This document shows positions 8,791 through 41,699 of a stretch of DNA of 64,000 nt, piece by piece. Below the pieces are notes generated by a model. It was not told the origin of the DNA. It saw only the letters and a program-made list of their open reading frames with translations, and ran no database searches. The stretch covers positions 1-64,000 of the forward strand of contig QPGO01000097.1 in the NCBI GenBank assembly GCA_008632985.1. The letters run 5' to 3'. This DNA is from Psammoneis japonica (taxonomy: Eukaryota). How positions within the stretch are numbered: position 1 is the first letter of the stretch; the number at the start of each line of letters is the position of its first letter. A program made the translations under genes and the position numbers.

Positions 8791-8986
8791 ATAGAAGCAT
8801 GATTTGTTATCCTATGCTTCAGCAGAGAATAAGTACACGTACGTCTACAATAGTTCAATTTATAAAATCAAGCAAAATGGAAGCGCGTACAGAAAAGAAT
8901 CGTATGTAACGAACTATTTCTATTTCCTCACCCCTGTAGGGCACTTTGGCGAGCACGGCTACCAGACAAAGTCTCCGGAGTAGCAC

Positions 8987-17636: not shown

Positions 17637-17901
17637 GGCCCCTAGGATGAAAAAACCGCAACCAGCAAGATGTTGGCAAATATTGTACTAATCTAGAGAG
17701 ATAAAAGGAATTCTACATAGAAGCATATCTCAATTTTCTAGTTATTGAAAATGACACAAATGATCAGAACCCTACGTAGAGTTTAACCTCTCTGACCCCG
17801 AGAACGCATTGTTTTGAATACATGAAGTAGGCTTGATACTGCTTGTGATACTATCGGTCGATTCCACACCACCGTTGATGGATGCATTCGGCATTTGTCG
17901 C

Positions 17902-19196: not shown

Positions 19197-19519
19197 GGTT
19201 ACAATACGGTGTTATTGATCGAGCTGATGTGTGTTGTGGAAAGTGTTAGCCTCTTATCTTGAGCTCTCTCTTGAGAAGCTGTTCGTTAGTTCGTTATGGT
19301 TGTCGTTGTTGTTGTTGTTTTCTACCGTACTACGCCGTACTATGGGGTTGTGTTCGTGGCTGAGTGGAGGGAATTTTGACCAAACGTCAAAGCGCAGATC
19401 CACAGGGTTTCAGTACAGGTATTGCATATACCGAACTGTCAAATTCCGTCTTGGAATTCGAACTCCATCCGACGCGCTCTGAGTATTGTGGACACTGTGG
19501 AGGTAAACTGCGACACCTA

Positions 19520-20086
19520 CACTCAGAATACTGTACACTACCTAACGAGTACGGGAGGTTCTCAACAACCCAAGAGGCAAAGAAATTACCACTCGGCTAA
19601 TTGTTGAGTCCCTTCTCCGCACACACATTTAGGCATGTGTTGTGCACAGCATCATCACACAGCATTTATCCAACTCTCCCTCTCGTCGCAGGATGGGGTG
19701 TCGCCTTGGGGCGCATCCGCACGGCGGACTTACGAATTTGACCATGCACTCCCTCTGATGGGCAGGATGGGTAGCGCCATGTGGCGCATCCGGCCAAGGG
19801 AGGAGTGGGTTCGAAGCCCAACCGCCCACCCCGGATGGGGTTGGAATGGGGCAGGCCGAGAAAGAAAAGGAGGCTTGGATTTGAGGCCGACTCGAACCAG
19901 CGACCTCAGGAAGCGTAAAGACTCATAACCACTCAGAATACTGTACACTACCTAACGAGTACGGGAGGTTCTCAACAACCCAAGAGGCAAAGAAATTACC
20001 ACTCGGCTAATTGTTGAGTCCCTTCTCCGCACACAAATTTAGGCATGTGTTGTGCACAGCATCATCACACAGCATTTATCCAACTC
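19520..20086. repeat. 157-bp direct repeat (19520-19676 and 19930-20086, one mismatch) flanking a 253-bp GC-rich spacer
   Basis: Both copies read cactcagaatactgtacac...cagcatttatccaactc. Confidence 0.9.
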
Positions 20087-20159
20087 CTACCGCACAAGGT
20101 TCAAGAGAAGAGGACGTATAAGCAAGCTTCAAATCCATTTACTCTACAATATTGTGAAG

Positions 20160-20477
20160 ATGTTCCTCTCTATGTTAAGTGGCCCCGTTCTCAGGGCCTC
20201 ATCGGCACGCTGGTTTGCATCCATTGCGGCAAAACCTGCTCTTCTCTTTGGCCCTCCTCAGGAGTTACAGCTAGAGTCCTTACTTGTGGGTTCGATCTTG
20301 AAGCGTCCGTGCAATCACATACTCGAGCAACGCAGTGAATCTTCGCCATTGTGGGAGTCGCTGATGGCGATGAATCGAAATGCCAGGCGACCAAAAAAGG
20401 CCAATAGAGGAAAGAGGCCGGTGTCGCGTGTCGCACGACGTGCAAAGAAGCGTGCTTACGGAAATCATCGTCGATAA
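20160..20477 (+). CDS. Small basic protein with mitochondrial-type presequence (possible mitoribosomal peptide)
   Basis: N-terminal MFLSMLSGPVLRASSARWFAS and a highly basic C-terminus MNRNARRPKKANRGKRPVSRVARRAKKR. Confidence 0.55.
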   Translation: MFLSMLSGPVLRASSARWFASIAAKPALLFGPPQELQLESLLVGSILKRPCNHILEQRSESSPLWESLMAMNRNARRPKKANRGKRPVSRVARRAKKRAYGNHRR

Positions 20478-20676
20478 ATGTATCTTTTACTGGTGGTTCA
20501 GTTCCTACAGATATAAGACAAGTAGGCAACTCACGTTGTATTCACACTTTCGCGAACATTTCTGATTGACTTTTGACAATGCTGCGTAGAAAGATTCTTT
20601 CTTAAACCGAAAAGACCTACCGTGTTTCGTATCTGCTGAAATAAAACTCTAGCTTTACCACAAACTATTCTTCTTA

Positions 20677-21792
20677 CTATGGAACATAAATTCGATAATG
20701 GAGGACAAATGTATCATTTCCGCCCACGTCATTCAGATCCCGTTTTGCTTCTTTCATGGTGATCTTGTCGTCTAGTACAACAGTTTCGCCGTCAGCGGAT
20801 GACAGAATCTGATCACATAGTCATGCCAAGCGCGATAGCAGATGATGGATCAGAATAGATCCAGAAAAGGAGCAATACAATAAGTACAACCATGAACACT
20901 GACAACGCACCTGAAAATGGCTTGACGGAGCGTATGCGAGCTTTCGGGACAAGAAGGTTTTCAGGGTCGCAACTGGTAGCTCATGGTTTACTCGAAGCAG
21001 TTCTCTATACAAACGATCGACTCGAGTTTCTTGCGGGTGCCGCCGAAGAAAAAAGTCTATCAGTGGCGACGGCTGCGGCAACCGAGAAAACGAAAAAAGA
21101 TAAGAATCTTACAACGATCGAGCTTTGCACGTTCTAGCCTTTCGTACCTCAATACCCACAATTGAAGGAGATTTTTTGGCCCTTTTCCGTACGTCAGCTT
21201 CCACTACGGCGTCAAAAGTATGCTTCTCTGTGGTCTTCTTTCGCTGACTTGCTTGGGCCCTTATTCCTCGTTTCCGGCTTTCTGTATAAGTATTGTTCAT
21301 GTGTTGCGCCTTGTTAATCATTTCAATTTCACGTTCTTGCTGCTCTTCAAGGGCTTCAAGGTCTCCACACATACTCAAGATCAGGCGATCAAACTGAGGA
21401 TCACTTCGTAGTGAGCGACGCGAAGGGATGTGTATCCTGCAAGTCGGACACTCCTTTTTTCCAAGTCTTAAACACTTCTGAATGCATTCTCCACAAAACC
21501 GATGGAGGCATTCCATAACAATGCTGGTGTTTTTCATGTATCCCAAACACACCGGACATTGGAACTCATTGCTAAGGCCCTTGAGCTGGATACGCATACG
21601 CTGGTTCGGGTTGTCCAAAATGACCTTCCGCGGCTCCCGATTCATATCGAACAAAGTTAAGTACGGGTCACTCCATTCTTCTTCCCACCTTGAATCAGGA
21701 TGGTACTGCGGAATTTCCTCCTTCTCCTTTGATGATGCAGAAGAGACTGAGTCCTCGTCGTTTTCGATCGCTAGTGTCGATGGACCCGGCAT
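20677..21792 (-). CDS. RING1: RING1/RNF2-like E3 ubiquitin ligase (PRC1 catalytic subunit-like); two introns
   Basis: C3HC4 RING FQCPVCLGYMKNTSIVMECLHRFCGECIQKCLRLGKKECPTCR followed by SRRSLRSDPQFDRLI. Spliced C-terminal RAWUL-like domain ends at TAG (20677). The true start may lie further upstream. Confidence 0.8.
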
Positions 21793-22553
21793 GAGTTACT
21801 ACAGTAGAAATTGGCTTCTTTCGGCGCTTCTGTCTTCCTGCGTGCAGAGTGTGAAAGTGTGAATGATCATGGTCGGCTCGGTTTGTCACGCGCGCCGCCG
21901 TCTATCTGCGTGCCGCATAAACTGAAAACCCTTTCAGTCGGCAAAACCACAGCATAGCGCTTGGTACAAAATTACGTACGTACTTCATCGTGTTAAAAAA
22001 AATGGCAACCACGGCGAAAGCACGAAGGAAAGAGACAATCTATCATCTGCCCTGTTTAACACTGGGACGTATCTTGAATATACAAACTGATTGAATAGAC
22101 ATACTTGACAATACGCGATGATCTTCTACCGAAGGAATCTACTTTATTAGTCATTTAGAGTCTCATAAACTATCACTAGTTAATTGCCCCGAAAAGCGTT
22201 TCGATTAACTCCGCACTGCAGAGAAGCGAGTGACATCAACGTATCAATCGTAGCATTGATTCGATAGAGATAAACATCAAAGTAGCTGTTTTTGAGGACG
22301 TACATCAGCATAAGCTTGATTGCATTACCAGCCACACCTAGATGTTAGCATAAACTTGATTGCATTACCAGCCACACTCAGATTTTAGTCAACGAAAGCT
22401 AGTAGACCAAAACTCTCAATTCCCAATCCAAAACAACCGAAAAAAGCTGCTCCCAGCACCGTCGTCGTAAGTCGTATCCCACGAAATCTTTCTCGAAAGC
22501 TAGTCTCGACAGTGTGGATACCTGCGCTGTATAAAGCAGCCCCTTCCACTTCT

Positions 22554-23216
22554 TTATTTTCTTTTTTGTGCTGAAATGTAAAGAACTACAATATCAAGAG
22601 CATTCCGATGCACAAGAAACCGCAATGAGAACTATTGAGCAAGCGCGTAAAGCTGCGAAAAAACCACCAAAAAGAACTGTGCGGCCGTCTCACCATTGTT
22701 TCCGCGAATGAAGCAATCCCCATACTTTGCCTTGAGCTGTCCATCGACAAATTCCTCAGTTTGCTCCATGGCAATATTCATGTACCCATCGAGACATGCT
22801 AATACTCCTAAAAGCGGGTGAATTTTACAACAGCCAGAAACACAGAAACACACACGAGAGGCAAGAGTTTGAGCTCCGTATGCACAACGCACAAAAAAGA
22901 CACCAAGTAGGGAAGGAGAAAGAAACTTACCGCGATATTCTGTTCCCGAATTCAATTTCACTTTAACTGGACGCCCCAGCACAGACTTTAGGAAATCTGA
23001 TGGCGATCGCTTCTTGGCTGCCGCAGTCTGACATAGGCCAAAGAAATTGAACACGCAGCATCGGCAAGCTCGTTGAGTGAATGATACCCAAACGTTCAGT
23101 ACCTCACTGTTTTGTCCATGACTTACCTGCTCTATCGAACTCAATGCAACCCCTGCAGCTGTTGTAGGCGCTTCGGTCGCTAACGGATCGCTTTCGGTGC
23201 CGGTAGGGGGCTCCAT
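22554..23216 (-). CDS. LSM6: U6 snRNA-associated Sm-like protein LSm6 (multi-exon)
   Basis: Spliced sequence PSDFLKSVLGRPVKVKLNSGTEYRG|VLACLDGYMNIAMEQTEE...KYGDCFIRGNN|VLYIS. Confidence 0.93.
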
Positions 23217-23341
23217 GGTCGATGCGATGGTTCGAAGTGGGATGTGGGATGTGGATGTTCGCGACGACAAAATCTGTCTTATCTACGGTATGAGTATGTA
23301 CAGTAGGAACTACCGGGCGGTAGAGTTCATTCTACGGTAGG

Positions 23342-23468
23342 AGAGTAGCGAGTCCCGAATAATACGAGTCCCGAATACTTTACCAAAATTTTGGTAAACT
23401 TTACCAAAATTTTGGTAAAGTGTTCGGGACTCAAAATGGTTTCGTCCATTCGGGACTCGCTTGAACCA
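23342..23468 (+). repeat. Left inverted repeat (~127 bp), internally palindromic
   Basis: Reverse complement of 61925-62051. Contains two tandem TTTACCAAAATTTTGGTAAA palindromes and GAGTCCCGAA in direct and inverted copies. Confidence 0.9.
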
Positions 23469-25536
23469 TTGACCTACGGTAGGTCCGTCTACCGGTGCGC
23501 ACCTGCGCGCGCCCTGCTCTGTCGCTGCTTTCCCGGCTTTCCGTCCCAGCTCCATGATGCCACGTGTAAAAATTAACCCCCGTCCAAACACCCACTTCGA
23601 TCGACTAACAGCACACAGATACGAAGTTCACCACACTTTTGGGGGCCTAGAATGGGGGTGAACGTCAGTCACCACCCAATCACTGGAATTGACTCTCGCA
23701 CTTTCCCGTGTGATGAAGGTGCTCCACGAAAAGTCAGTTCCATTTTCAAATGCCAGATGCCATGAACAACACATGCCCACTGCATTCTCGTCAGACATCG
23801 GTTTAAAGAGCAGGAGACGACAATGCTCATGTCTTGTGTGTTTTGTGGCTACATTGGGGGTCAAAGTCCAACCGCTCTTCCAAAAATTTTGAGTCGCGTG
23901 GGTCATGCGGGGTTCAAGACATGTGGCTCAATGTGCGATGAAGGGAAATTGACCCTCCTTTTCTTGACACTGAGATCAGATGACAACATCAACACAAGAC
24001 CCATTTTGTGGCTGTGCGCCATTCTCCAATCCATGGCTGGCCTCCTGACAGCTGCATTTGACCTCTTTGGTGCCACAAATTGGCGATGCAATCCATGAAC
24101 ACTCACTTGCAAGCGCCGCACTTTTCCATTTTGAGGTTTGACATTTGTGTCTTTGCGATGAATCTAGAGTGGACGCGAGCCAGGGAGGAGCTCCATTCAG
24201 TGCTGTTTGTCATTCTGTGGAACAGCAGCATCAGAGTGATGTTGTCAACATTGTTTGGCTTTTTTTTCTTGAGCCGCATGGCAACTTCATTCCTGCATTT
24301 TCACTCCCATCCACCCGACTCTCTACCACTCAAGAATGCTTGGCTGAATGCATTGCAGCTGCTTTGTCAAAGTCTTAAAAACACTCGTCAATGCCATTTC
24401 TCAAATGGGTTTGACAATGCAACGACGACGTTGGATTTGTCGATTTGCTCATGCTGGGAAAGACAACAAGAAAACTGGCTGCGGCATCTCGCGCACGTGT
24501 GCACGGTCATTGGACTGTGCAGGTGTGTGCGCATGTGCAAGGTGCAAGCAGAACATGCGCAGAATTGCTGCTGAGTGAGTTGACATGCGGTGGATTTTCC
24601 GCCGGCACACAATCTGCGTGGTCCACATGGAAGATAAATTTGTGTCCATCTCCGAAGCTTTCACATGTCATTAAAATTTCTTTTGTCTTTTAAACATGTG
24701 TGCCACAGTTCAAAAATCTTGCAGAACACCCCGAAAGAACTCTGGAGTCTGGACAAAAAAAATTTCCACTCAACAGTGCGAACAGGGTTGTCGCGAAGCG
24801 CTTCTCAAAACAACCTCAGATTGAACACAGTGAAAAATCGACTGTTGGCAGAACAGAGTCACCATGGGCAAAACAGATCCCCGTCCTTTGAGCGCAATGA
24901 CAGCAGCACAACAACGCACAACAACACCATGGCGAGCAATGCAAACGCCGTTCACTTGTCTGCCAGCTGGCATTTCCAGACAAGATCAAAGCTGTTGGAA
25001 TGCATTTGTGTGCTTCATTCCTGGGTCAAGTTGGGTTTCTTCTCGTTGCTTGTTGTCATGTCACTTTACAACGTCTTGACCCACGCCGTGTTTTTTGCTT
25101 TTCTTGCTTCTGCTCGATCGCGCGCGTGCCACCGAACAGCTTTTCCTGCAGGGTGTGGCTAGTTGCTCATCACATCGAACCCAAACGTGCGCAACCAACT
25201 AGCCCTGCCCCGGCCAACTCATGTCCACATGCATGTGCATGTTCCACAAGTAAAAATTCCCATTCCACAGCTCCCCTAAAACTCCAACCACCAAAAACCA
25301 AGGGCACGGAAACGCACTTTTGGCAGCTCTTTTTCTCCGCACAAAAAACACGCGTTTTGACGACTCGACCATGACGATGCCTCGTGGTTCTTCCCCATCG
25401 CCTTCCCAGGACGCCGATCCCACTGATGCCATTGATGACAACACTGACACAGCAGGTGATGTCATCATTCCGGTTCTCGCAGGTGTGACACATGCAAAAT
25501 AAGATGCTGCAAACTCACACTGTTGTTTGAACGCTC

Positions 25537-26010
25537 CACTGCCTCCCACAGATGCCATCACGAATTCCAACGCCGCACCTGCGTTTCGGGCCCCTGGCAT
25601 GCCCGATGCTGTTGCTCCTGCCCTTGCTGCCACAGGCACTGTTGACACTGTCATTGGCTTTTGCCAACAACGTCCACAAAGAAATGCCAACAACTCACAC
25701 TTCTTTCATTCTCGCCCCACCGCCTGCCACAGATGCCATCACGAACTCCAATGCCGCACCTGCATTTCGGTCCCCTGGCATGCCCGACACTGTTGCTCCT
25801 GCCCTTGCTGCCACAGGTGCTGTTGATGCTGTCACTGGCTTTTGCCAACAACATCCACAATGAAATGCCAACAACTCGCACTTCTTTCATTCTCACCCGC
25901 CGCCTGCCACAGACACCATCACGAATTCCAACGCCGTGCCTGCATTTCGGTCCCCTGGCATGCCTGACACTGTTGGTCCTGCCCTTGCTGCTGCAGGGGC
26001 TGTTGACACT
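25537..26010 (+). repeat. ~180-bp tandem repeat, about 2.6 copies
   Basis: ccacaga(tg/ca)ccatcacgaa...cccctggcatgcc...gcccttgctgc recurs at ~25541, 25721 and 25901. Confidence 0.85.
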
Positions 26011-27400
26011 GTTGTTGTTTTTGCTTTGGAAGGAGCACAATGGATGACAGCAGACCAGGAAACCCGCGCAACCATGGCCTGCTGATGGACGAGTGTTGGT
26101 GTCATGGCTCTCATGCTTTCCATGTTTGTTCATGGTTTTCTGGTTTTGGTTCAAGGAAACTTGCAGCCCGTCAGGCAAAGACATGGCAATCAATTTTTCA
26201 GATGTTGCAAGCATGAACACCCGTGTTGCACAAGTGTTCAGTGGGCTCTTTGCCTGCCCTTTGCTGGCCTGCAACATCAATGGACATGAACAGTGCCTCT
26301 TGGCTGGCTCTCGAGTGCAGTCTAATCTTTAGAATGTGCAGACACATCATGCAGTTCTCTGTAAATTAGAAACCTGATGTGGAGCAACAATTGGATGGCA
26401 GGCATGCTTTCACAGTTTTGTGATGTTTTTGCAAGTTGCTAAAATGGAGGCAGGTGGCAATGTGCTTTTGGCAAATGTGCACTGTGTTTGTCACCAGACC
26501 TTCAAAACTGGTGCCATGTCGACAGCTGTGCTGCTGCTTTGCATGCCGACACCTTCTCTGCCCGCACTCCATTGGCTGCGTCCTCCTTCACATGTTGCTG
26601 CGGTTCATCTTGACACCGAGTCTCAATCACCTACAGACAGAGGAGGTTCTGCTCAGGAATCATCCTGAGAAAGCCATCGCCACACCTCCCAGATGCTCCT
26701 CTGCCACGCCCATGCCCACGCCCATGCAAGGAGTGTCAACCAGCACATTGCTGCTCGCGGAACCCATGCCTTCATTGTTTCTTTTGTTTTTTGACATGGT
26801 TTGGGAGCTGCACCCCAGACTGTTTGAGAGACGGCTCATCAGTGCCTTCCACGACACGACGACACGAATGAAAATCCAGTTTCTCCAGGAACGCAATTGC
26901 AGGAGTGGACCAATCCCCGAGCTGCGTTTGTGTTTCAGGCACCGAATCCGGTGAACAGAAGCACAAATCTTCCGGATGGCAAATCGGCTGTGTTTGTGTG
27001 ATGACAGCGGGTGTGACGGCACCGGCCAATGCAGGAGGGACTGCCGCATCAGACATGGCAGGCAGGGATGTGTCAGGTGGTGCAGGGGACAAAGAACGGG
27101 AGGTCGTCATGGTTGAGTTGTCAAAACGCGTGATGTTTTGGTGTGTGTGCAGTCTTCCAAAAAGTGTGCTTCCACACCCTTGGTTTTTGGTGGTTGGAGT
27201 TTTAGGGGAGAACATGGTTCAGGATTTTTCTTGCTGCTGTTGGCATTTGTGTGCAAATGCATGAACAAATGTGAGGACATTTGTGTGAAAATGTGATGAA
27301 TGAGACACAAATCTGCCATGCCACCATGACATCACCACATTCTCCCCTGCCACAGGGGTGGGCTTCTTTCAGCCCTTCTGTCTTGAACTAAATGCAAATG

Positions 27401-28917
27401 TGAATGAGACAGGCACATGCACTCTGTGACCAAGTGTGCCCTCTCTGACACACGCACATTGTCAACCAACATGTCAGACATTCAAGAGGCCGTTAGAAGT
27501 CAGTTCCGATCAGCGATTGCGCTGATCGGGTCCCTTCTCGGTTCTCTCACAACCTGTTTTATCAAGTCATCTCAAGCCAGATCTTGCACTGTAATTACAG
27601 TCGTTGTTGTAGCTTGCTCATTGCACTGTCTGTTTCATGACAATGCGCAGAGTGCTGTTGAAAAGAGAGAAAGCTCATTTGTGTTCTCGTGCAGAAAATT
27701 TTGTTAGAAATCAATCGGAACCTCAGTGCAATTGTGCTTGTGAAATTGGCGATTCGGGGCAGCGTTTGTTTGAACTCGAAGCTTGTGTTGCTGCGCTTGA
27801 ATTTGTTGTTGTTTGGTCATTGATTGTTCTCATTGTGTGGATCAATTGGGAACGTGTCATTTCATCCATTGTGTGTGGATTGTTGATTCTTTGATTGCTG
27901 AAGTTGTTCATCGGTCATGTGTCAAGAAGCCTTGGAGAAAGCGTGCATTGAGCATAAAACCAAATTTGTGGACTCTGAATTGCAGGAAGTGAAGCTTGCT
28001 CAAACCTTTGATGATGGAACTAAACTTTCAAAAATGTGCCCCATTTTTGCAGGAGAACATGGAATTGAATCGCTGTTGTGTGTGGAGGACCGTTTCTGGA
28101 AGGCAGCAAGACAGTTGGATTGTGACACCGGAACAGAACTCTTTGATGCTTTTCAGGATTGCCTGCAAGGTGCCATGGAGGTGAAATGGCAGAACATCAC
28201 AGCGGGCATCCAACAGAATCAAAGGATGGCAGCTCGGTTTAATCAAGCCATTTTTCAGCCTGCTGACTGCGTTGTGTGAAACCGACAGCTCGCGATGCGA
28301 TGAAGATGTGCTTGCCTGCTTGCAAGAAACCTTGCTCCATGGAATCTGAAACTCACATTGATTGCACGGAAACCTCATTTCGTTACACTGACCGCTTGCC
28401 TGGAACCGTCCCCGAACTCACAGAGCAGGAGCAGCAGAAAAATGTTGTCTTCTGCACCTTTCCCTCAACCTGGCAGCAGTCCTGCATTCGTGCAGGCAAG
28501 AATCTTGTTGCAGATTCAATGGTGGACATTCAAGCCCACATGAGCAATGAGAAGGTGTTTGCCAATGGTCAAGACAACAAGAAACGCAAGTCCAACAATG
28601 GCGACGGAGGGAACTCCAGCAACAAGAAGGGCAACCGTGACAAGAAGGATGACAAGAGTCAACCCAAGGCTGGTGATCCATGTCCGGTCCCATGGCATCA
28701 TGGAAGACACACATGGGGCCAGTGTTGTGATGATCTAAACAACCCCAACTGTCGTGGACCTCAAAACCATGGCGGTCAAGGTGGAGGTCATGGCAGTGGA
28801 GGTCGAGGCAGAGGTCGCTTCCAAGGAGGCTGTGGTCCTGGCCGTGGTGGCGGTGGACGCTTTGGTGGTCATGGTGACCAAAACCAAGGAGGTCGCGGCA
28901 CCCATTGCAACAATTGC

Positions 28918-28955
<38 letters not shown>

Positions 28956-31900
28956 CGGGGATCAGAGTGACAATGGCAACCAAGGTGGTGGCAGCCAACA
29001 TCATCACAATGACAACAACAATCGTGGTGGCCAAGGTCAGGCCAACGGCTGTGCTGCTCAAGCAGACAATGTGAATGACAACCAGGCTCAAGGTGATGTG
29101 CACCATTTCGACATGATTGGACAAGGCCCTCTATGTCATGGAGGTGTGGTGAGGTTTCAGCCAGATGGGCAGTTTCCTTGGCAGTTCTGAGAAGAAGGAG
29201 CTGAGTGCTCCAGAGCTGAATGCTCCCAATTGCCTGCATGTGAAGCATTTGTTGAAAATGATTGTGCCATGCCTGAAAATGCACCTGAAAGTTTTGTTTT
29301 TGATTGTTTTGAAAATCCCAATGAATTGTCACCCATTGAATTTGAAGACACTGCAGAAAATTGCATGAATGAAGAGGGGGGCACATTCGATCAAGATGCA
29401 TTTGAACACAACATTCCTCTCCCCAAAATGGGTTTGCAAGTTTCGTGTGCCGCATCAATCCCATCAACACTGCTGGTTGCCAAATCGATCCAGCGTCATG
29501 AGTCGAATCGTGTGATGCACGTGCCATTTGATTCTGGTGGCCATCACACTGTGATTTCTTCTCAAGTTTTGCCTCGTGGGGCCGCACCATCTGTTGATGA
29601 GCATGGAGTGCAAGCTTTTCAAACCACAGCAGGTCCTTTCCAGTTGGGTTGCTGGGTGGCTCTGAGTGACATTGTGCCACCCAAATTTGACAAGACCAGA
29701 AGGGTTGAGACGGCTGTGTCGCTCATGTGTTTGATGCTCCGTGTGCGCATGACATTGTTTTGGGTCGAGACTTTTTAGACAAGATTGGACTCCATTTGAA
29801 TTATGATGCAAGAACTCTACATTGGTTGGACCGTGTGATTCCAATGAAGGAGCCTCGTCATTGGTCCAAGTCCTGCAACTGGTGTGTTGCACCAGATCAA
29901 ATGGATGAATTTGATGAAGATTGCACGGACAAATCGGACTACAAGTGTGATGATGGACATGACAGCTGTGTGCTGGATGCCAAGTGTGAAGCAACGGATC
30001 CTGCGGAAGTGGTTCGCAACCTGGATCACCTGACGGAAGAGCAAAAGATGAAGCTGCCAGCAGTGTTGGAAAAACACTCAACCTTGTTTGATGGAACTTT
30101 GGGCCACTGTCCTCATGAACAGGCACACCTGGAGGTGGATGAGAATGCCACACCCCATCACTCAAAACCTTTTCCTGTTGCTCGTGTCAATGAGGAAGCA
30201 TTTGAAAAGGAACTGAAACTTTTGGTGGACCCAGGAGTCTTGCAACCATGTGGACCCACAGAATGGGCAGCCGGCACTTTCATCACTCCAAAGAAGGACG
30301 GCCGAGTGCGATGGGTGTCTGATTTCCGTGAACTGAATGAGGTGCTCAAGCAGAATGTCTGTCCTTTGCTGGTTGTCCAGGATGCACTGCAGCGGAGAGC
30401 GGGGTGCAAATTCTTTGCCAAACTTGATCTCACTGTGTTCTGCTGCAACTTGGAATTGGACGATGAAAGCAAGGAGCTGGCGATGATTGCAACTCCCTGT
30501 GGAAAGTTCCAATGCTGCAGCATGGCCATGGGATTGAAACCAGCTCCAGACATTGCTCAATCTGTCATTGAAAAGATCTCACATGGCTGGCTTGGATGTT
30601 GAAACTTGTGTTGACGACATTGGCACATTTGACATTGACTTTGACTGCCATCTCTCTTGTCTTGACAAGGTGTCACATCATCTTGAGGAGAATGGATTAA
30701 AAGTCAACCCATTGAAATGCAAGTGGTGTGTCCAAGAGACAGATTTCCTGGGGCATCGGCTCACTCCAACTGGCATTGAAGCATGGAAGAAAAAGGTCGA
30801 AGCCATTCTCCGAATGCAGCCTCCACGGAATGCGGTGCAACTTTGTTCCTTTCTTGGTGCAGCAACCTGCTGTTGCAATGGGTGGCCTTGTTGTTCTCAC
30901 TTGCTTGCTCCTTTAACGGAGGCAAGAGCCAGTTCTGTTGGTCAGGTGCATGTTAGAAAGCATTCAAGGAAATGAAGGTGGCAATCACAGCGGAAGCTCT
31001 CATGGCCCATCCTAACCACAACCCACCGTTCCATGTTTGTGGACACTGGTCCAAAAAGCTCTCAGTGGCTCAATGCAGCTGTTCAATGATGGAGAAAGAT
31101 CTCCTGGCAGTCATCATGTGCTTCAAAGAATTTCGCACAATGCTGCTCGGTGCTGATGTTGCTGTTCACACTGACCATAAAAATCTCACCTTTTACACCT
31201 TTGATGCACAGCGCATCCTTTGTTGGCATCTGTTCCTTGAAGATTTTGTGCCTGCTTTTCAATGTGTTGAAGGCAAGGACAGTGTGCTCGCTGATTGTTT
31301 TTCTTGTCTCCCACACATGGATCCGCCTTTGGAGGGGAAGAGCCTTGGGCCCAACAGCAAACGCAAAGGAAAAATCATTCATTTCGAAAAGTTGGACAGC
31401 AGTGAATTGAGCAAGGCCAAGGAAGAAGAAGATTTGGAGTTGGGTGCTTGCAGGTTCAAGTGTTGCCGTGCTCCTGCCAATCCCTCTGATGAGTCTCATG
31501 CCTTTTCTTCTCTGCTCAATGAGCCTGAATTGTTTGGGTGCTTTTTGAATTGTCCAACGTTGGATGAGATGCCAAATCCTGCCGAGATGTTGCAGATACA
31601 ACAGCTCCAGTTTGAGGACCAGCAACTGAATCAGCAGAGACAACAGAACCTGCAGCAATTCGTGGTCAAGATTGTGAACCAGCGTCCTCTCATGTGTTGT
31701 CGTCTGCATTTGAATGATCCGCCTGGAGCATGGGAAATTTGTGTTCCGACTGCATTGTTGAATGACATGCTTGCGTGGCATCATCGTGTGTTGGGTCATT
31801 GTGGAGTTGTTCATCTGTGTGAGAGTGTTCGCACTCACATGTGTCACCCTGCACTGCATCGGCATTGTAATGAGTTTGTGTGCGATGCCTGTCAACGTTT

Positions 31901-33038
31901 CAAACAACTTGGTCTGGGACATGGAGAATTGCCTGAATGCCAAGCACCATTGGCTCCATGGTCGGAAGTGGCAGTTGATCTCATTGGACCATGGAAAACA
32001 CCAACTCAAGATCAAGAGATTGAACCCAGTGCCCTCACTTGCATTGATGCCATTGCTGGCCTGACTGAACTCATGTGCATTGATGACAAAACTTCTCAAC
32101 ACATTGCCAACAAGTTCCGCAACCTTTGGCCAGCTCATTGTCCCAGACCAAATCGATGCATCCATGACAACGGCGGTGAATTCATTGGTTGGGAATTTCA
32201 GATGCCATTAAACCAGGTCAGTGTCGAAGATGCTCCGACAACCTCACGGAATCCTGCAGCCAACTCTGTTTGTGAACGAATGCACCAAACAGCAGCCAAT
32301 GTTTTGCAAACTGTGGTTGCTGCTGACCCACCTTTGAACATTCAACAGGCCAAGCAAATTGTGGATGATGCCCTTGCTGCAGCCTCTTTGGCATTACAAT
32401 GCTCTCATTCAAGGTCCATGGGTGTTTCAAGCAGAGCTTCAGCATTCCAACGAGATGCAATTTTGGACCTCCCTGTTCTTTCCAATCTTGCTGCCATTCA
32501 AGCCAACCGTCAAGTGCTTGTCAACAAAAACCTGCAACAACAGAACGCAAAGCGTCATTCTTGTGATCATTTGGTGGAACAAGATGTGCTGATCAAGTCC
32601 GTGGATCCAGCGAAGCTAGAAGCTCAAGCTCATGGTCCGTTTCAAATTGCACAAGTCCATGCCAACGGGGCAGTTTTGGTGCTGCAAGCACCACACGTCA
32701 TTGAGCGGATCAACATTCATTGCGTGGTGCCACATCAGAGTTGAGGGTTTCTTCCCAATGCCTGGGTTCCCTTCTCCATGCGCATTTGGAGTTTAAATTT
32801 GAGTCAAGTGGCTCCAATGGTGCGTGTGATTCTTGCACCATGGAGGGGAAGAGTGAATGAGATGGGCACATGTGCTCTATGACCGAGTGTGCCCTCTCTG
32901 ATGTGTGCATGTTAACTGATGCATTGGACATTCAAGAGGCCGTTAGAAGTCAGTTCCAATCAGCGATTGCGCTGATTGGGTCCCTTCTTGGTTCTCTCAC
33001 AACCTGTTTTGTCAAGTCATCTCAAGCTGGATCTTGCA
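27401..33038 (+). mobile_element. Full-length, mutationally decayed Ty3/Gypsy LTR retrotransposon
   Basis: LTRs 27401-27588 and 32854-33038 (TG...CA), PPT ggaggggaagag before the 3' LTR, 5-bp TSD aaatg/gaatg. Gag knuckle CPVPWHHGRHTWGQC; protease FDSG; RT PKKDGRVRWVSDFRELN and CVDD; RNase H EKDLLA and HTDHKNL; integrase HHCC, VDLIGP, DNGGEF, CERMH and GPF. Order is PR-RT-RH-INT. Confidence 0.95.
28918..28956 (+). repeat. (AAC)13 microsatellite encoding poly-Asn in Gypsy gag
   Basis: Read directly from the sequence. Confidence 0.95.
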
Positions 33039-33365
33039 GAATGATCGTGGCTGCTGTGCGGCACACGTGCGTGTGTGTTTTGTCAGGTGCTGCCATCTGC
33101 TGTCCAACCTTGTGCGCTGTGCTGTAGTTTGACAAGACAAATGACCCTTTCCACCCGACCGTTGGGTCATTTTTTCTAGCTGTTTGAAAAATTTGAACGC
33201 ACTTGCATGGGCAAGAGCATGAAAGAGCAGTGAGCACACCCATCTCTGCTCTGCCCATAAAGCAAAAGCCAGCAGCAGAGGAAGTGCGCTGACACTGTGA
33301 AAAACTCTCATCAACTTTTAGGTTTCCATGAGAGAATGAGAGGTGTGTGAGCCCTCCATTCTCTC

Positions 33366-33620
33366 ATGGGTGTTTCTGCTTCTCAACTTTTGTCAGGAGA
33401 TCTTCTGGAAGATTTGGAAGATTCAATGGCGTGTTTTGAATTCTTGGATCCTCTGACTGCGTCAGCGCTGCAAAATGCATTTGACAGTGTCAATTTTGGA
33501 AGCAATCCATGGGGTGTGTTTTCAGCAATGGCTGACAATTGCCTTTGTTCCTGGGAAGTGGGTGGTGTGGAGAACGTCACACAAATGGACGTGGCACGCA
33601 TGAGTCGGATCGACCAAGAC
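33366..33620 (+). pseudogene. Possible Plavaka-like transposase fragment
   Basis: NAFDSVNFGSNPWGVFSAM...LCSWEVG resembles the pre-catalytic segment of Plavaka-type transposases; judged from recall only. Confidence 0.35.
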
Positions 33621-36600
33621 ACAACTCAACGCCAGACTGACAGACCAAAAATGTGCAAGACAAACCATCCGCCGACACATCACCACAACTGCTTTCTGTT
33701 CCTGTCATGCCTGCCAGTGGGAACCGACAAGACAATGTTGTTAGATGGGTCACCTTTTGATTTTACCAGGACAGCAAACACACAATGTTTGACAGACGAA
33801 AGTCTTGCCTCCTCTTTGTAAAACATGTCCATCAACAAACATCCACCTGCTGCAACTCATTCCTCAATCTTGACCACACTTTCTGGGCATGAACATGCAA
33901 ATGTTGTGGACAGGACTCCCTTGTCTCCTGGGGCAAGACAACAGTCAGGCACTTCTGGATCTGGCATTGGCAGTTCAGACCCAGTTTCTTCTTGTGCAAA
34001 TGTGCATCAATGCAAGAGTGATGGTTGGGGTTGTCCAGCCATGCCCCACACTCCAGATGCGGGAAGGTTGCCTCAAAGTCCTCCTTTAATTTTGACTCAT
34101 GTTCCACACAACCAACAAAAGTCCCAATGTTGAAAGGGACAAAGAATGCACCGTTGTCTTTCATTGCCCTGCCTGGATCCAGTGTGGTTTTCTGGAAGAA
34201 GCCTTTGCTAAATTGGCCACTGAACCGACCCTTTTGCAGCCAAAAGAAATCCATGTTGATTTCCAAGAAGTCCCCCCAAACTTTTTCAGTGGCTCATCCA
34301 CAAAGTTTGGGCTGCACACATTGCAGTTTAGGTGTCATCCTGCATGTCCGTCACTGAGAGAGGCAGTGCAGAACTTGCATGCATTGTTCCCTGTGTGGTT
34401 GCAATCACTCAACAGTTGCTGACAAGCAAGTGGCCTTGCTGTGTTGGACCGCAGCTTGGCGTTTGTGAAAACAGATGATCACTCTCATCAAGAAGGATGT
34501 CATGGTGTGGCACACTGTCAACATCTTTGGTCTGTGTCATGCACAGAAAAAGCACCTTGACCTGAGTCATGGATGGGGAAACATCGTTCCGAGTTGACGG
34601 ATCATCGTTTTCTTCATGCTCAATTTGATCTGCCAAATCAACTGGAGTGCAATCATCTTGCACCAACGTTCGAAAAGACTCAGCACCAGTTGATTCCAGT
34701 GCATCTTCTTCAAAATCAACATTCGGGTGTGGATCATCATCCTGGCCAGGCAGTGCAGGATGACACGTGTCTGTTGGATCCTCCTTTTTCATGTCTTGAT
34801 CTGGCAGATTCTCCTTTTCAGTGTCCTCAACTTGCTCTTGAGAATTGACAGGACTGTCACAATCTTTTCCTGCAAACCTCAGAGACTCTGCAGTCATTGA
34901 TGATGCACCTGTGGACTTGTCCACTGGTGTTGGAATTTTTTCCCAAAATCAAGTTCCACATTGTTTGATGCTTTGGACTGCATCGGGACCAATGAGGGTA
35001 AAGAGATGTTGGTTCTCAACACAATGTTCTTTTGTCAAGTCTCGGATTCTGTTCTCATGGCTGTCACAGGTGATGCACTCCTTGCAGTTGTCATGCAGTG
35101 TGCGGCTGTTGTGTGCATGTCCACAATTGCACATTGTTCACATGTCAATCGCACCACAGTCGTGGACGCGCACAAAGGACAGAATGATCACACAGAGTTG
35201 ATTGGAAGTCGAAAATTGCAAATGCGATTGACAGACAGATGTTGACATCTTGTGTGTCAATGGCAATCGCATCCAGACAATCTGTTGTCACAAACATGTT
35301 CTCCAAAAGGCCTTTTGTCTGCACCAATTTGCGAGCATTTCCTGGACCCTTTTTTCTCTGGCAAAGTGGTGGAAATCGGGAGTGCTGGTGTTTTCATTAA
35401 TCCAGTGGAGAAGTGATGTGATGTCAGTTGTCATCTTGTCCATTCTTTGGTTCAAAACCAAGCATCGGAGTTTGTTTTGGGAACTGTCCAATTTGCAGTC
35501 ATCCTTGTCTGCAGCTTCAGTTTGTCTCCTCTTGCCAGAAGTGTTGCTGGCAGATGCTTTGGTTGCATGGCATTGCTTGTCACCCTGTGGTGAAGCAGAA
35601 ACATCACTGTCACACACGTTGTCACCGATTTTGTCATTGTTTGCTGCAGCACAGCATGCTGCAATGAAATCATGTCCACTTGGGTTCACACAATGAGGGT
35701 GACTCCAATGTCACCAGCAGCTGTTCCAAAGGACTCCCACTGCTCGAGTGTGGGTGGGCCTGAGCAATTCTAAAAACCGTTGATGGCCAACACTGTGCAA
35801 TTTGGCAGCATTTTGGCACTCTGTGCATGAGGCATTTATGTGGAAATTACGTGCGTACAATTGACAGGGGAAGCGAGCGTGGAGAAGAGACGACGCGAGC
35901 GAAGCACGAGCGAAGAGACCGACAATGATGCAAGAGCCGCAGAGAGACGCAAAGACAGCAATCCAACGATGTTGCAAGAGGGCACAAAAGAGAGAAAAGA
36001 TCTGTTTGAGTCAGTGCCATGTCTTCAATAAAAAGAACAAAGCAAGACAACATTGGCATGCACAAAAACTTGCACAGAGAAGCACGGCACCAGCGCCTGA
36101 AAAATGACCACATCTGCGGTGACATGGAACACACAAGGAGGTGAGAACACACTTTTCTACAAATGCAAAGCAACAACGAGCAAATGACCAATGTAAACTC
36201 ACCAGTGGGGTCAAAACTCGGGGTGCCTGGATCGTCAACGGCGGGCAGGGAGGACAGATGGAAGAGAGGCAGCTGGCTCCACGGAGCAGGACGACAAAAG
36301 CAGGCGGTAGATCGGCGTGAGCAATGGTGGAAAGTCGGCGCTTGGGATCGAGTGACTGGTCCGGTCCATGCAAATCGTGGCAGTAGCTTGGAGAACGGAG
36401 GCAGCGCCATGGTGGCACGGCACAGACCGGGGAGAGAAGAAGTGCCGCGGCGGAACGGCATGGAACGGTGACGGAGCCAAAAATGGTGACGGCGATGGCG
36501 CAGACCCGTGGACTTAGACATCCCCATATTCGAGTCCTGTGCATCAAGACACGGGACAAGGAGGTTCAAGGTGAGCGCCATTGCGAACGAGAACTGGGAA

Positions 36601-39600
36601 AAAGACGCACGATTCCACGAGAATCAGAACTCACCACATTTTGAGTCATTCTGACCCATTCCAGAGCCAGGGCTCACTCACATGGCACGACCCAATGGAT
36701 CATAACACTGTCAAGCAGGGCAGGGGTCGGGAGGCGGTGTCTTACCGGTCAAATCGGCCAAAAGCGCCATTGTCGGAGGGAGCGGTGGTTGTCGATCGGC
36801 CGCTCGGAAAAATTATGAGCCATCAACCCGACCGCGCACCGTTCGGAGTCGCACAGAATTTCTCGGTACAAAATGTACACAAGTGTACGTCAGTATAAAA
36901 CACGTGTAGAAGGGGTGTAAGTAGAAACTTACTGTCTCTCTGTTGACTACGAGGAGTCTGCCGTTAAACTATACCAGTATGTATAATTCTACGTGGTAGA
37001 TTTGAATCAATCCCACCAACGTTTTTGAATTTCGATCGTAATAACGGCTTTAGGTGCTGAGATGAATATAATATATAAGTTTGAATTAAATATCATATGC
37101 AATATTAATAATTTTGAATGATTGCGCGACTGCCAGTCGGCACGAAAAACCGTCGCCAATAAGTAAACCTGCAGTACAGAAGTACTCTTTTGCAATACTT
37201 TGGTACTTCAGTCTTGCACATGAAAGCGCTCCCTAAGTAGTTAACGGTCAAATTGTATATATAAAATCCTCACAGCGGGAGACCCTATATACGCTCCCGT
37301 GTGCACTCAACGCGCCTCGGTTACGACCTTCTCGTTGGGTTGCACAATGGCGAGAACGACCCACAGCTTGTCGTGTGGCCTTCTCGTCGGGCTGAAGCCC
37401 TCCTCGTCGTCCACCCTCCTCGCTGGGGTCGTTCTCGCCATTGTGCAACCCGCCTGGTCGGTCTCCACCTCGTTGCTTGGACCCTTCTCGTCGGGTTCGG
37501 CGGGGCCGAACCCTCCTCGTCGGGCTCCACAAGTGCACAGGGCGCGTACCTACAGCACTCCATGGCACAGCAGAAACAAACAAGCGTGGCATTGCTGGGG
37601 GAATTGCGCAGTTCCTCCGAGTGCTTTGTTCCAATGTAGAAGAAGTGGCTGAAGCCAGTCTGGCAGCTTGCCATGACAGCCAGATGAGCACAACCGCGCA
37701 CGCCAAGGTCATCGCGGATGTTGTCTGCAGGTGGACAAGCAAGAGAAAGTCAGAGATTTCTTGTGACAGAAGCAGGGAAGACCACAGTCTCCTGCATTGT
37801 GTCGCCATTGGATCTCAGCAAGACAGACTCCCATGGGACTGGACAGCCATCATCAAGGAAGAATGCTTCTGTGTGGTGATGGGACAGATCACCCTTCCTT
37901 AGAGCTTGTGTGCCCAAACATTCATGAATGAACTGATTGCAGTTGCAATCAACTGCATGTGCAAAAATGCCAACCCTCGCCTGGAGGTCTCTCATGCCAC
38001 ACTTCTTCATGCAGTGATTGCCAGCCTCAGCACAACTGCCAGCCAACAATTTGACAGACCAAAGGTTGCCAACCTTGTCCATCCCAAACAAGCAAAGAGC
38101 TGCGGTTTCATTGCATGTGAACCAACAGCAATCCTCTTTGTCTTTGTGTTCATCAGCTCTGTCACCAAGGCTCATGTTCTTGAGCTGAATCGAGCATGGC
38201 TCGCTTTTAGAAACTTCGGCACCGAGTTTGTCACGTGCGGGTTGGCCAAACTGATGAGTGTGCTCCTTGTTGTTGCAGGAAGGTGGGGGATCAAAATGAT
38301 CAACGCACAACTCATCCTGGCAGAGCTGCGTGCAGTCAAAGGCATCAGCTGACATGGCCTTCACTTTGGGAATGAAATCTTCATCATCTTTGTCCATTGC
38401 AAAAATGTCAAAGCCAGACAAAGGAGATGGCATTGCTTTGCGGTTGTCTCTGACAACAAAATTCTGTCTGCAGCAACCAAAGTCAACACAACTGTTGTGA
38501 ACAGCCCCCCCCGGGGTGACTCTAATTGCAGTTCTTGTCAACTGTGCTGTGCTCCAAAACAAAATGAGTGAGTGTTCCAAAATGAATTTTGAGCCCAGAG
38601 AAATGTTTTTTCTTGAACAGCTGGTCATTGGAATGGAGTGTGGTTTGTCCAGCTGCAATCTTGGTGACACTGGGAGGGACTGCAATCAACTTGCAAGAAT
38701 GCCACATTGGATTGGGGAGTGACCTTGATGACTCAAACAAATGTGTCAAAACATGGAGGTTCACCATGAGGCAGAAATCCAAAGGGGAGTGACAGAGAAT
38801 GAGCTCTTGGTCGTTCATGTTGTCATCAACATCGCCATCTTCATCTGCACCATTGTAAAATGCATGAACACGAGGAGCAACCTTGGCAATTTGTTGGAGG
38901 CTGGGTGTGGGACACTGACATTCTGGTGGGAAACGAGCATGCCAGTCATCCACAGGAACAACAAACTGGTTGTTCATTCAATGAAGGCCGGTTGGTCGGT
39001 GGCTGGAAACATTGTCATCTGTGGTCTCATTGTCTTTGTCATCATCTGGGTCACTGATGAGTTGAGCAAGGGGGGGGGGGGGGGACTGCAAATTGGGATG
39101 GCCAGAGGGATCACAGAGATGGCAGCGGGAAGGAGGTTCCACGGCCTTCTTGGTTGTGGAGGGTGCAAGTGTGCCTGGGTGCAAACAACAACACAAATGC
39201 AAAGAATTTGTAGAGGAAAATTCAAAGAACAAATGTTTGACTGAATGAGGGTAAAAAACTGACCTTTGGCGGATCCAGATCCATCATCTTCTGACCCTTC
39301 CTTGGCACACCAAACCACGTCAAGGAGACAAACAATTTTTTCTGTTGAGGCTTGAGGTGCCTGCACGTTAGATCACAAACATGGGAGTGGGCTGTTGCCA
39401 GGTTCTTCATTTTTGGACGGTTGAGATCCTTGCAAGCATGCTTGAAGGCACAGCGCATCTGCTCTTCCACCTCTGAACCGCGGCAGGAGGCATTTCTTTT
39501 GTCCTTTGGCCTTGTTGGACATCTGATCCCGGATGGCACCTGGACCTTTCCTCAACATGTTCTTGACAATGTTGCCAGATTTTACTTTGACGTTGGCATT

Positions 39601-41699
39601 GACAGTTTGCAGGAGAATTGTCAGAGGTCATCACAAATGTCTTTGGTTTGGAGCATTGAGAGAAAACAAGTCTTGACCAATGTCAGGTGTCACCAAAGTT
39701 TGGTGCAACATGAGGGAGGAATGGAGCATTCACTGTTGATGCTGCAATGCTCTGAGTCTGCACGAAAAAAGTCAGCCTTGGCAATGAAGCTGCTCTTCTC
39801 AAGAAAGGTTGAGTGGTCACAGAGTTTTTTGGAATTTGCAAACCCATGCATGCAATCCACCATGGCAGTGAGGTTCTTGCCATGGCAGGAAAGATTGCTG
39901 GAGGACTCAATGACTTTTTGGCATTGAAGAGCAAAGCAACCAGTGCACTTGCCGACCTTTCTTTCCAGCTTGCAGGTCCAACCGCGGCTCTTGATGCAGT
40001 GGAACCCATCTTTGCACCCAAGAGATTGACCTGTGATGTCATCAACTGCTGTGCATTGCTTGAAAAATGGCACAGTCCATTCTTGGGGTTGTGCCACAAA
40101 CAAGGCAATGCCAGAAAGTCAGGGGAGGGGTTCCACTGGACACTGGAAAGATGTTTCTTCCTTGCACATTGCATTTCTGTCATCCTCCTGAAGTGTTGTT
40201 TGGCAATGCAATGTTTGCCATCACCACTTGTGAAAACAATTGTGTTGTCGTCCATTTCGATGACTTGCAAATGTGGAAAACAAATGTCAGAAAAGCCAAA
40301 CAGAAGCATGTTGAACAACAACAGAAAAATGTGGCACACAGCATTTTTTGTTAGAACTGGTTTTTCTGGCAGTCCCAAGGTTGGTTTCGGCAGCGCCAGC
40401 GGCGCCATTGTCAATGTCATCATCATTGGAAAGGCAAGCACCATGGTCAAACAACTCTTCAGAGAACTCATCATTTGCAAAGGGGAGAACATGCAGCAAG
40501 TCCGCACTGTGGCCAGAATTGATGGAACAGGTGGAATCATCATCATCGGAAGATTCCAAGGCAGCAGCTCTGGCAAAACTGCAGGAATCACAGGATGATT
40601 CTTCCTCCTTTTGGCCATCAACGTCTGCACATGCAAGAGTGCGCCCCAGGGAGCGACCAAGGCAAGTGCATGCTTTCTCCAAAGATGACAACGGAATGCC
40701 AGCAGCAGCAACAGCACTTGAGTTGTGGTGCAAAGGAGAGAGTCAAGAATGCTGCCATTGCCAACTGAAAAACAATCATTGCTGTCATCAGCGGAATCAA
40801 CTGGCTTGTCTTGGGCAGGATGGACTGGAGGAGGCAAAACAACAGGCCTCATCATTGCAACAAATGGGTGCCATGGGGCTGCACGCAATCTACGCAGATT
40901 TTGTCATGTCAATTTTGGCAAAAACAAAGAGAGCAGAAGTTGACAGGGTGAAAAAGATGCAGAAAGATTGCAGAATGGACAAAATGATTGCAGCCCAAGT
41001 CATTTGTCTCAATGCACATTGAGCAATTGTGAGTGCATCACCACCAATGAAGGGGCTGGCATGTGTTGTGCATGATGAGATGTGAGTGACTTGGATGTGA
41101 CAGTTGTGATCAGGTGAGAAAAAACATCACTGAGTGCAAACAAACAAGCAAGGGCAAAATGGACATGGGCAGCTGCATGTGCCACAAACAGGGGCATGTC
41201 CGGCATGTCAATTGTTGCATTTTTTAAGACGGAAGAGCAAAAACAACACGAGCATGTCTGGGGGCAGTGTTCAGGTGAACAATGAATGTGGGCATGTGCA
41301 AATGAATGAGAAAGGTGGGGTGAAAATAAAGGACAGCGCAAACAAACAAGTGAGGGGGGCACGGAACACATGAAGATGTGAGCCCAACAAACAATGGCAG
41401 GGGATGATGATTTGTGATTCATGTGGCTTCACACGCCTCTCTGATGACCCAAGGACAACCAAGGTTGAGTCCACTGCCTCCCTTGCCATTGCAAGGGTCA
41501 GTGCAACTCCAGCTGCAGTGCAAGTCACAATCATTGGAATGACCATACCAAGGATGAACAATCACGTCTCCTCATCTGGGGGGAGGAACACTGAAAGACC
41601 AAACAGGTCTTCGTCAATGGCCCAAGCTCAGGGACTTGGAGCCAAGAGCCACCCATCATGCCAGCTGACTCACTGTCATGTCCACAACCCCCAACTGTG

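Follow-up and report, generated by a model that had tools for sequence, protein, structure and literature searches.

The first 64,000 nucleotides of contig QPGO01000097.1 from Psammoneis japonica (NCBI GenBank assembly GCA_008632985.1, forward strand), referred to here as the window, contain a dead Ty3/gypsy-type long terminal repeat (LTR) retrotransposon at 27490–32800 that lies inside DNA nearly devoid of the dinucleotide TpA. The few TpA sites that survive in the element, and in the depleted DNA of the window as a whole, are far from random in the bases that flank them, and these flanks form the subject of the present analysis. The window comes from the nuclear genome of a diatom. For a conserved splicing-factor exon at 18612–19196, the named relatives are all diatoms, including Nitzschia, Seminavis, Mayamaea, Cylindrotheca, Epithemia, Odontella, and others, at 77–82% identity, with the best match overall at 89%.

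TpA-depleted blocks and the retrotransposon

Dinucleotide counts per bin sharply separate two kinds of DNA in the window. Host-gene DNA (1–4500, 7751–23500, 36501–37500, and 62001–64000; 23,250 bp) carries 44.7 TA/kb, with observed/expected ratios (o/e) of about 0.6–0.8 for TpA and about 0.85–1.2 for CpG. The three depleted blocks, 39,500 bp in all, hold 156 TA, equivalent to 3.95 TA/kb or 0.4% of dinucleotides; in 2-kb bins their TpA o/e is 0.01–0.15, that of TpG and CpA is 1.26–2.23, and that of CpG is 0.04–0.7. Along 500-bp bins the switches between the two states are sharp (e.g., 23501–24000 and 62001). Block 1 (4751–7250) is adjoined by a border bin (4501–5000) that retains 17 TA, and it shows 0–3 TA per 500 bp over 5001–7500 as opposed to about 22 in host-gene DNA. 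Block 2 (23751–36250), which contains the LTR element, has a TA o/e of 0.06–0.11 and a CpG o/e of 0.38–0.69, and block 3 (37501–62000) has corresponding values of 0.01–0.08 and 0.04–0.48. The transposon-derived blocks have lost about 93% of their TpA, which has been turned into TpG/CpA, and the host genes are spared. The decay of CpG is uneven, with an o/e of 0.04 at 46–52 kb versus 0.4–0.7 at 24–36 kb. An assembly gap of 203 N (50574–50776) lies inside the most strongly depleted block.

Because TAA and TAG are nearly gone and TGA is the only stop left, the depleted blocks are rich in long false open reading frames (ORFs). Stop-free frames of at least 90 aa number 188 in about 41 kb, occupy all six frames, and in many cases overlap on both strands; such false ORFs will mislead gene predictors. 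A Pfam scan of 78 of the 188 ORFs returned credible matches in the LTR-element frames only, and transposable element (TE) identity is demonstrable by Pfam for this one block part. The block 3 ORFs that were scanned show no recognisable protein domain, the sole Pfam match in that block being a sub-threshold IRS/PTB hit at 60473–60895 (E 0.0017, 18.8 bits vs a cut-off of 22).

The degenerate element is bounded by a 5′ LTR (27400–27588, + strand) and a 3′ LTR (32853–33038, + strand) that were matched by self-comparison at 84.7% over 189 columns. Between the two LTRs, reverse transcriptase (RT), RNase H, and the integrase zinc-binding domain follow one another in the order expected for Ty3/gypsy. 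RT spans 29709–30972 on the + strand in two frames (29709–30599 and 30538–30972; Pfam RVT_1 with E 1.2e-5 for both pieces, below the gathering score), while RNase H and integrase share a + strand open frame of 595 aa at 30957–32741 (Pfam RT_RNaseH, E 5.8e-14; Integrase_H2C2, E 0.0025). Homologues of the element at E ≤ 1e-5 number 191, of which the best is 54% identical. The pol region is not intact: RT is split over two frames, a stop lies at 30954, and none of the conserved Tyr residues is left, that of RT at 30607 now being Cys, followed by V-D-D.

The element is multi-copy, with a contig depth of 900–1900. Contigs of the DNA run X1 join 27461 directly to 33007, skipping 5545 bases, and also join 32855 to 27406; these LTR-to-LTR joins indicate that solo-LTR and tandem forms of the family exist elsewhere in the genome. 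The presumed gag region contains repeated AAC codons (poly-Asn) at 28917–28960. The X1 contigs have an additional AAC at 29073, and reads seem to be cut at 28908–28964.

Flanking bases of the surviving TpA sites

Within 27490–32800, 28 TA survive (o/e 0.08), and 22 of them stand in a TTA/TAA context where 43% would be expected from 78 related elements (p 1.5e-4). They comprise TTAA (5), TTAG/CTAA (7), TTAC/GTAA (6), TTAT/ATAA (4), and others (6). A sequence-only reading of the window had noticed this bias, and it holds over all depleted blocks, in which 113 of the 156 survivors are TTA/TAA. The examples on which that reading relied are found both in the element (28240 gttTAatc, 30698 gatTAaaa, 30914 cttTAacg, 32209 catTAaac, and 32794 gttTAaat) and in block 1 (5811 ATTTAAAG, 5824 AGTTAAAG, and 5931 TTTTAAAG), where they are the sole three TAs in 5701–6000.

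Four nulls were used for the NTAN tetranucleotides, namely, host genes, the first-order Markov composition of the blocks themselves, TG/CA back-mutation, and the related elements (17,007 TAs). These predict TTA/TAA shares of 37.6, 52.4, 46.2, and 43.3%, respectively, and the observed excess has p values of 1.2e-18, 2.5e-7, 2.7e-11, and 1.6e-13 in the same order. Across the nulls, the ten NTAN classes give chi-square values of 61–185 on 9 degrees of freedom (df), and an even spread of residual TpA over NTAN contexts, once composition is corrected for, is rejected under all four. The bias is present in six of six sub-blocks (60–90%) and persists, at 78 of 105 sites, when the 8 of 78 500-bp bins with at least 5 TA are left out.

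The most frequent classes in the blocks are CTAA/TTAG (45), TTAA (27), GTAA/TTAC (27), CTAC/GTAG (19), and ATAA/TTAT (14), and the rarer ones are CTAG (9), GTAC (7), ATAG/CTAT (6), ATAC/GTAT (2), and ATAT (0). The biggest single effect is a shortage of ATA/TAT, which accounts for 22 of 156 survivors vs an expected 49% (p 2e-20); ATAT is absent where 7.5–8.6 sites are expected, and the two ATAC/GTAT sites compare with an expectation of 16–23. The listing of ATAA among the favoured survivors in the sequence-only reading is therefore not borne out, since ATAA/TTAT falls below expectation (14 vs 20–24).

A half-site model expresses log-survival by two added terms, one per strand, that depend on the base immediately 3′ of the A (+1); it describes these classes with a deviance of 6.3–9.1 on 6 df under every baseline, vs 72–150 without the effect. 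Relative to A, the terms are 0.28 [0.04–0.57] for G, 0.89 [0.59–1.17] for C, and 2.03 [1.67–2.59] for T, and the +1 base among survivor half-sites is A in 45%, G in 28%, C in 20%, and T in 7%. Survival is estimated at 20–36% for TTAA, 22–30% for CTAA/TTAG, 4–6% for ATAA/TTAT, less than 1% for ATAC/GTAT, and 0 for ATAT, with 7–9% overall. Judged from these counts, the +1 effect appears to be graded as T > C > G ≥ A, with TAG probably almost as cold as TAA. Two earlier proposals agree with this pattern. The palindrome TTAA survives well above the overall rate through two independent half-sites and is in this sense protected on both strands, and the A of TAA is a poor substrate, TAA being the coldest +1 context, in agreement with the product asymmetry and the palindromic repeat pair described below. 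The motif that had been suggested, TA-not-A, captures the coldness of TAA and is otherwise too simple, as the +1 effect is graded, TAG is nearly as cold, and the next base was missed.

At this next base (+2), A occupies 56% of the 312 survivor half-sites vs 25–27% expected (p 5.8e-36), and no bias is seen at +3 or +4 (p 0.17 and 0.90). Half-sites with the sequence TAAA number 82 vs 21.8 expected, TAGA 52 vs 18.5, and TACA 40 vs 21.0. TAAG, TAAT, and TAGC are close to expectation, and TATT (5 vs 27.8) and TATA (2 vs 16.5) are scarce. An A at +2 occurs on at least one strand in 133 and on both strands in 43 of the 156 survivors, and its excess is seen in seven of seven blocks (45–65%). The two positions contribute independently, with a chi-square of 121 for +2 given +1 and of 109 for +1 given +2 (3 df each), so the survivor bias has a two-position structure on each of two strands. 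TTTAAA is observed 8 times vs 11.4 expected in the ancestral sequence, a survival of about 70% vs about 7% overall. The flanks of surviving CG and TG in the blocks, which serve as negative controls, are nearly flat, with A at +2 in 24–25%. Summarized as a motif, TA followed by A or G and then by A would be spared, and the +2 effect appears to be as strong as that at +1.

Direction, products, and polarised sites

The losses in the depleted blocks are balanced by gains in the transition products. A loss of 40.8 TA/kb together with 41.4 CG/kb matches a gain of 81.8/kb in TG and CA (TG 4289 and CA 4395 in the blocks), and the balance also holds per 3′ base and per tetranucleotide. Comparison of the element with 120 homologues by tblastn yielded 471 codons that are covered by 20 or more homologues and on which 60% or more of these agree. 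Among 19 conserved Tyr codons, 12 are now Cys (TAY to TGY), six His (TAY to CAY), and one Phe, with none kept. Among 35 conserved Arg codons, 11 are kept, nine are Cys, six His, six Gln (CAA 4, CAG 2), two Lys, and one Ser, and Arg never became Trp or a TGA stop. In the LTR pair, 26 of 26 substitutions belong to the TA/CG to TG/CA class, many of them CA-vs-TG doubles, with no transversions. The related elements, which come from metagenome contigs, all have ordinary TpA (78 of 78, o/e 0.47–1.08), and none is TpA-depleted. The process acts at the DNA level, after insertion, and on both strands, and it changes A:T to G:C at TpA.

Comparison of the window with itself gave 15 repeat pairs, too small a number for strand-resolved rates; in these pairs, CA-vs-TG doubles are unpolarisable and TA and CG ancestry are indistinguishable. 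First-codon-position A-to-G changes (21, of which 14 after T) were not kept as a competition test, the alternative outcome being silent and hence invisible.

Half-site rates fitted to the survivors are A 0.40, G 1.03, C 1.68, and T 2.53 for TA, and for CG they are A 0.78 and 0.51–0.61 for the other bases. Derived from survivors only, these rates predict the NTGN/NCAN gains with a sum of squared errors of 7.7, as compared to 21.6 for a 50:50 split of each TA between its two products. A form of the product test in which CpG was split 50:50 returned impossible negative shares and was discarded, and the CG-survivor rates were used instead. The context xTAA proceeds to xCAA rather than to xTGA: in the blocks, VTGA/TCAB stands to VCAA/TTGB as 1291:2107, compared with 560:726 in host DNA (p 6e-4). 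The ratio of VTGA to VCAA is 389:630 where half of the CpG is kept and 379:622 where CpG is exhausted, and this equality between CpG-rich and CpG-poor blocks means that CpG decay is not the cause of the asymmetry.

A palindromic short repeat at 23342–23468 (+ strand, core 23366–23432) lies on the TpA-normal side of a border and has kept TTAC and GTAA. Its inverted copy at 61925–62051 (− strand, core 61962–62028) lies at the edge of block 3 and is identical in 117 of 130 aligned columns. The pair differs by TTACC/TTGCC twice and GGTAA/GGCAA once, i.e., by TTAC to TTGC and GTAA to GCAA in the depleted copy, and all three changes fall on the TACC strand, none on the TAAA strand. The sequence-only reading, which regarded the two copies as a terminal inverted repeat (TIR) pair, had assigned the changes to the TAC strand in the same way. 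The repeat is ~125 bp long with arms GAGTCCCGAA...TTCGGGACTC and its two copies coincide exactly with the outer limits of the depleted region of 38 kb; it could be a miniature inverted-repeat transposable element (MITE) or a border element. Another palindrome, at 37337–37451, is unrelated in sequence to this pair.

The homology-covered part of pol contains 12 surviving TpA. TTA at 30914, 32209, and 32395, CTA at 32617, and ATA at 31597 match Leu/Ile of the homologues; two T|A codon junctions, at 31013 and 31178, likewise match, and four of the 12 are ambiguous.

Proposed mechanism, rival explanations, and related systems

We consider it probable that a TpA-to-TpG/CpA process with a flank preference has run near to saturation in the transposon-derived blocks and that the survivors are mostly true survivors. 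Such a process would turn A:T to G:C at TpA on either strand, with ordinary CpG decay alongside, and it would assess the target A of each strand separately, from the two bases that follow on the 3′ side. The same rule can be stated for the T of the opposite strand and the two bases on its 5′ side (RTA hot, YTA and TNTA cold), and attack on the A (deamination to inosine) or on the paired T would be equally compatible with the sequence. An A or G at +1 with A at +2 would make a poor target (TAAA < TAGA < TACA), and a T or C at +1 with any base other than A at +2 a good one. As survival would need both half-sites to be poor, TTTAAA would be nearly immune and ATAT would disappear. The preference would then belong to the catalytic step of the mutator, which could be a DNA adenine deaminase, and not to repair or chromatin. 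The sequence-only reading had spoken of an enzyme-like preference, and the strand-wise flank preference upholds that description; its origin in the mutator is our own inference.

Several observations weigh against this explanation. The whole analysis stems from one 64-kb window with 156 surviving TpA, the ancestral composition is proxied only by host genes, related elements, or products, and the mutator enzyme is putative. The products give no support to TAT being hotter than TAC/TAG, since the A..C, A..G, C..T, and G..T contexts go in the opposite direction. The 18 polarised Tyr events give the model no significant advantage: Cys is predicted 10.4 times and seen 12 times, twice the log-likelihood difference is 1.09, and the favoured outcome occurs at five of nine decisive sites; TAY beat a purine-flanked partner in 9 of 11 Tyr events, a post-hoc split that is suggestive only. 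Survivors are mildly clustered, with an index of dispersion of 1.77. The survivor at 30954 is derived, a conserved Gln having become a TAG stop (TCAG to TTAG), and of 141 substitutions in the older repeat pairs 15 are transitions of other kinds and 30 are transversions, so some of the apparent survivors may have been re-created.

An enzyme that needs TpA only might leave the same pattern if the preference came from repair of the lesion (I:T or modified T) or from shape or chromatin at A-tract/T-tract junctions, an origin we regard as unlikely. The spared TAAA half-sites and the TTTAAA sites, with their survival of about 0.7, are indeed A-tract/T-tract junctions, the mild clustering of survivors would suit such an origin, and an effect that reaches +2 but not +3 or +4 fits local structure as well as it fits an enzyme footprint. 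However, TAGA and TACA are spared though they form no A-tract, TAAG and TAAT are unprotected, and the strict additivity of the two strands is what is expected of an enzyme that reads one strand. It is, in our judgement, quite improbable that the residual TpAs were mostly re-created from TCA/TGA by C-to-T change with a 5′ T preference. CpG decay is mildly context dependent and somewhat faster at TCG, as seen from Arg CGN codons (mutated in 13 of 14 cases when preceded by T and in 8 of 17 otherwise) and from the CG half-site rate, which is highest with a 3′ A, and both the derived site at 30954 and the 15 transitions outside the TA/CG classes in the older repeat pairs are of the kind that re-creation would produce. 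Nevertheless, a creation-only model has a deviance of 18.4 on 6 df (p about 0.005) and a steady-state model one of 13.8, as opposed to 6–7 for survival. Creation alone over-predicts ATAA/TTAT (24 vs 14 seen) and under-predicts CTAA (31 vs 45 seen), and it leaves the A at +2 unexplained. What tells the models apart is that a cold half-site fails to rescue a site with a hot partner. Moreover, TGAA makes up 5.6% of TGxy vs 26% for TAAA among survivor half-sites, the LTR pair has no substitutions outside the TA/CG classes, and three of the 12 pol survivors are TTA at conserved Leu, not Ser.

The absence of any preference, with the bias left to ancestral composition, to unmutated A/T-rich islets, or to chance with few sites, is very improbable. 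The interval 27490–32800 has but 28 sites, survivors are over-dispersed, and the ancestral sequence is proxied, yet four nulls are rejected, and the pattern is replicated in every sub-block and without the TA-rich bins next to flat CG and TG controls. The missing ATAT and ATAC/GTAT are the opposite of what A/T-rich islets would leave. Editing of retroelement RNA was rejected as the sole cause, as both strands are mutated and blocks without RT are equally depleted. ADAR-type editing of such RNA would affect one strand, whereas here T-to-C change on the coding strand accounts for 6 of the 18 Tyr losses.

Repeat-induced point mutation (RIP) of ascomycete fungi changes C to T, mostly at CpA, so that TpA accumulates. 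The process in the window shares with RIP a defence-like hypermutation of repeats and TEs with sharp borders, a dinucleotide target, action on both strands, and destruction of coding sequence. Its direction is the opposite: CpA is the source of TpA in RIP, and in the window TpA is the source of CpA and TpG. The target is a C in RIP and a base of an A:T pair here. RIP also acts on duplicated sequence; the LTR element is multi-copy, and some of the depleted stretches are single-copy at a likeness of at least 90%, though they may be old repeats.

Adenosine deaminases convert A to I, which is read as G; ADAR acts on double-stranded RNA, and TadA/ADAT2 act on tRNA A34, with DNA as a substrate in engineered or reported cases. 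These deaminases strongly require a 5′ T/U (U33-A34 in tRNA), and their neighbour preferences are short. For ADAR, G is the best and U the worst 3′ neighbour, which is the reverse of the survivor pattern here, where G is common and T rare at +1. The natural ADAT site is U-A-C-G, and other natural ADAT substrates have A or G at +1. A TadA/ADAT2-like enzyme would be compatible with the 5′ T and with hot TACG, TACC, and TACT (k 2.2–2.5), though TATN is hotter still as judged from the survivors and the avoidance of TAAA/TAGA is not predicted by the natural substrates. A 5′ U preference of ADAR is also mentioned in a preprint on Bigelowiella natans (bioRxiv 10.64898/2026.01.13.699255).

That preprint (Mettrop et al.) describes how viral and TE-like DNA that is integrated in the genome of Bigelowiella natans becomes hypermutated at TpA (bioRxiv 10.64898/2026.01.13.699255). 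As given in its main text, 230 of 231 de novo mutations in two viral regions are A-to-G or T-to-C, all at TpA, and the long-term trace consists of clusters with low TpA and high TpG+CpA, with RT and DDE domains enriched among TpA-poor coding sequences (bioRxiv 10.64898/2026.01.13.699255). To the extent covered by that text, the two systems share A:T to G:C change almost exclusively at TpA, with TpG or CpA as the product depending on the strand, in foreign or TE-derived DNA only. Among the features that mark the Bigelowiella kind of process, the type of change, the involvement of both strands, and the confinement to foreign or TE-derived DNA are found in the window; a further feature of that kind is its episodic de novo appearance in mutation-accumulation lines. 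The window differs, relative to the same text, in its diatom host, in the added CpG decay, and in a TA content of 0.4% vs 3.3% in the Bigelowiella region derived from a nucleocytoplasmic large DNA virus (NCLDV). The main text of the preprint makes no use of the terms "context", "flanking", "trinucleotide", "tetranucleotide", or "logo", and it gives no description of the +1/+2 preference (bioRxiv 10.64898/2026.01.13.699255). A paper on diatom DNA methyltransferases (PMC9998398) notes that many diatoms have a RID-related DNMT4, whose function is not known, and that TEs carry CpG methylation; this methylation accounts for the CpG decay but not for the loss of TpA. A literature search, with subscription journals and bioRxiv supplements outside its reach, found no paper on TpA hypermutation in diatoms.

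The process seen here is of a recently described kind; the host lineage is new for it, and so is the extended target preference defined here. Within the literature reached, TpA-directed hypermutation is otherwise reported in the Bigelowiella preprint alone, and, as far as its main text goes, the enzyme is not known there. The four-base, strand-wise signature (TAAA/TAGA spared, TATN/TACB mutated) provides a criterion against which the 231 de novo mutations of Bigelowiella can be compared and by which candidate enzymes, whether deaminases or T-modifying, can be accepted or rejected in vitro; it can also help to find hypermutated DNA in the genomes of other protists and to estimate its age. More tentatively, and with the odds rather against it, the process might be a RIP-like defence of diatoms that chemically rewrites TpA in foreign and transposon DNA, whose mutator reads T-A-(T/C preferred)-(not A) on one strand and is shared with chlorarachniophytes as part of an old DNA-level immunity across Stramenopiles, Alveolates, and Rhizaria (SAR). 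If this were true, the TAAA/TAGA-avoiding signature could be used to identify a SAR-wide TpA-editing enzyme.

Repetition and depletion can also be compared along the window itself, on which 3989 contigs of run X1, the one DNA run that contains the stretch and probably the source sample, were placed. They show 283 transition and 41 transversion places, and the differences number 335. The stretches 33605–34938 and 37607–43599 are fully TpA-depleted and have a single-copy depth of 65–130 at a likeness of at least 90%, so the mutated state is not tied to present-day repetition; these stretches (33.6–34.9 and 37.6–43.6 kb) may be old repeats. The ~1-kb island at 36501–37500 has normal TpA (23 and 31 TA per 500 bp) within the depleted region and a contig depth of 1600–2600 vs 65–130 in single-copy parts, and it may be a multi-copy sequence spared hypermutation, perhaps a young insertion.

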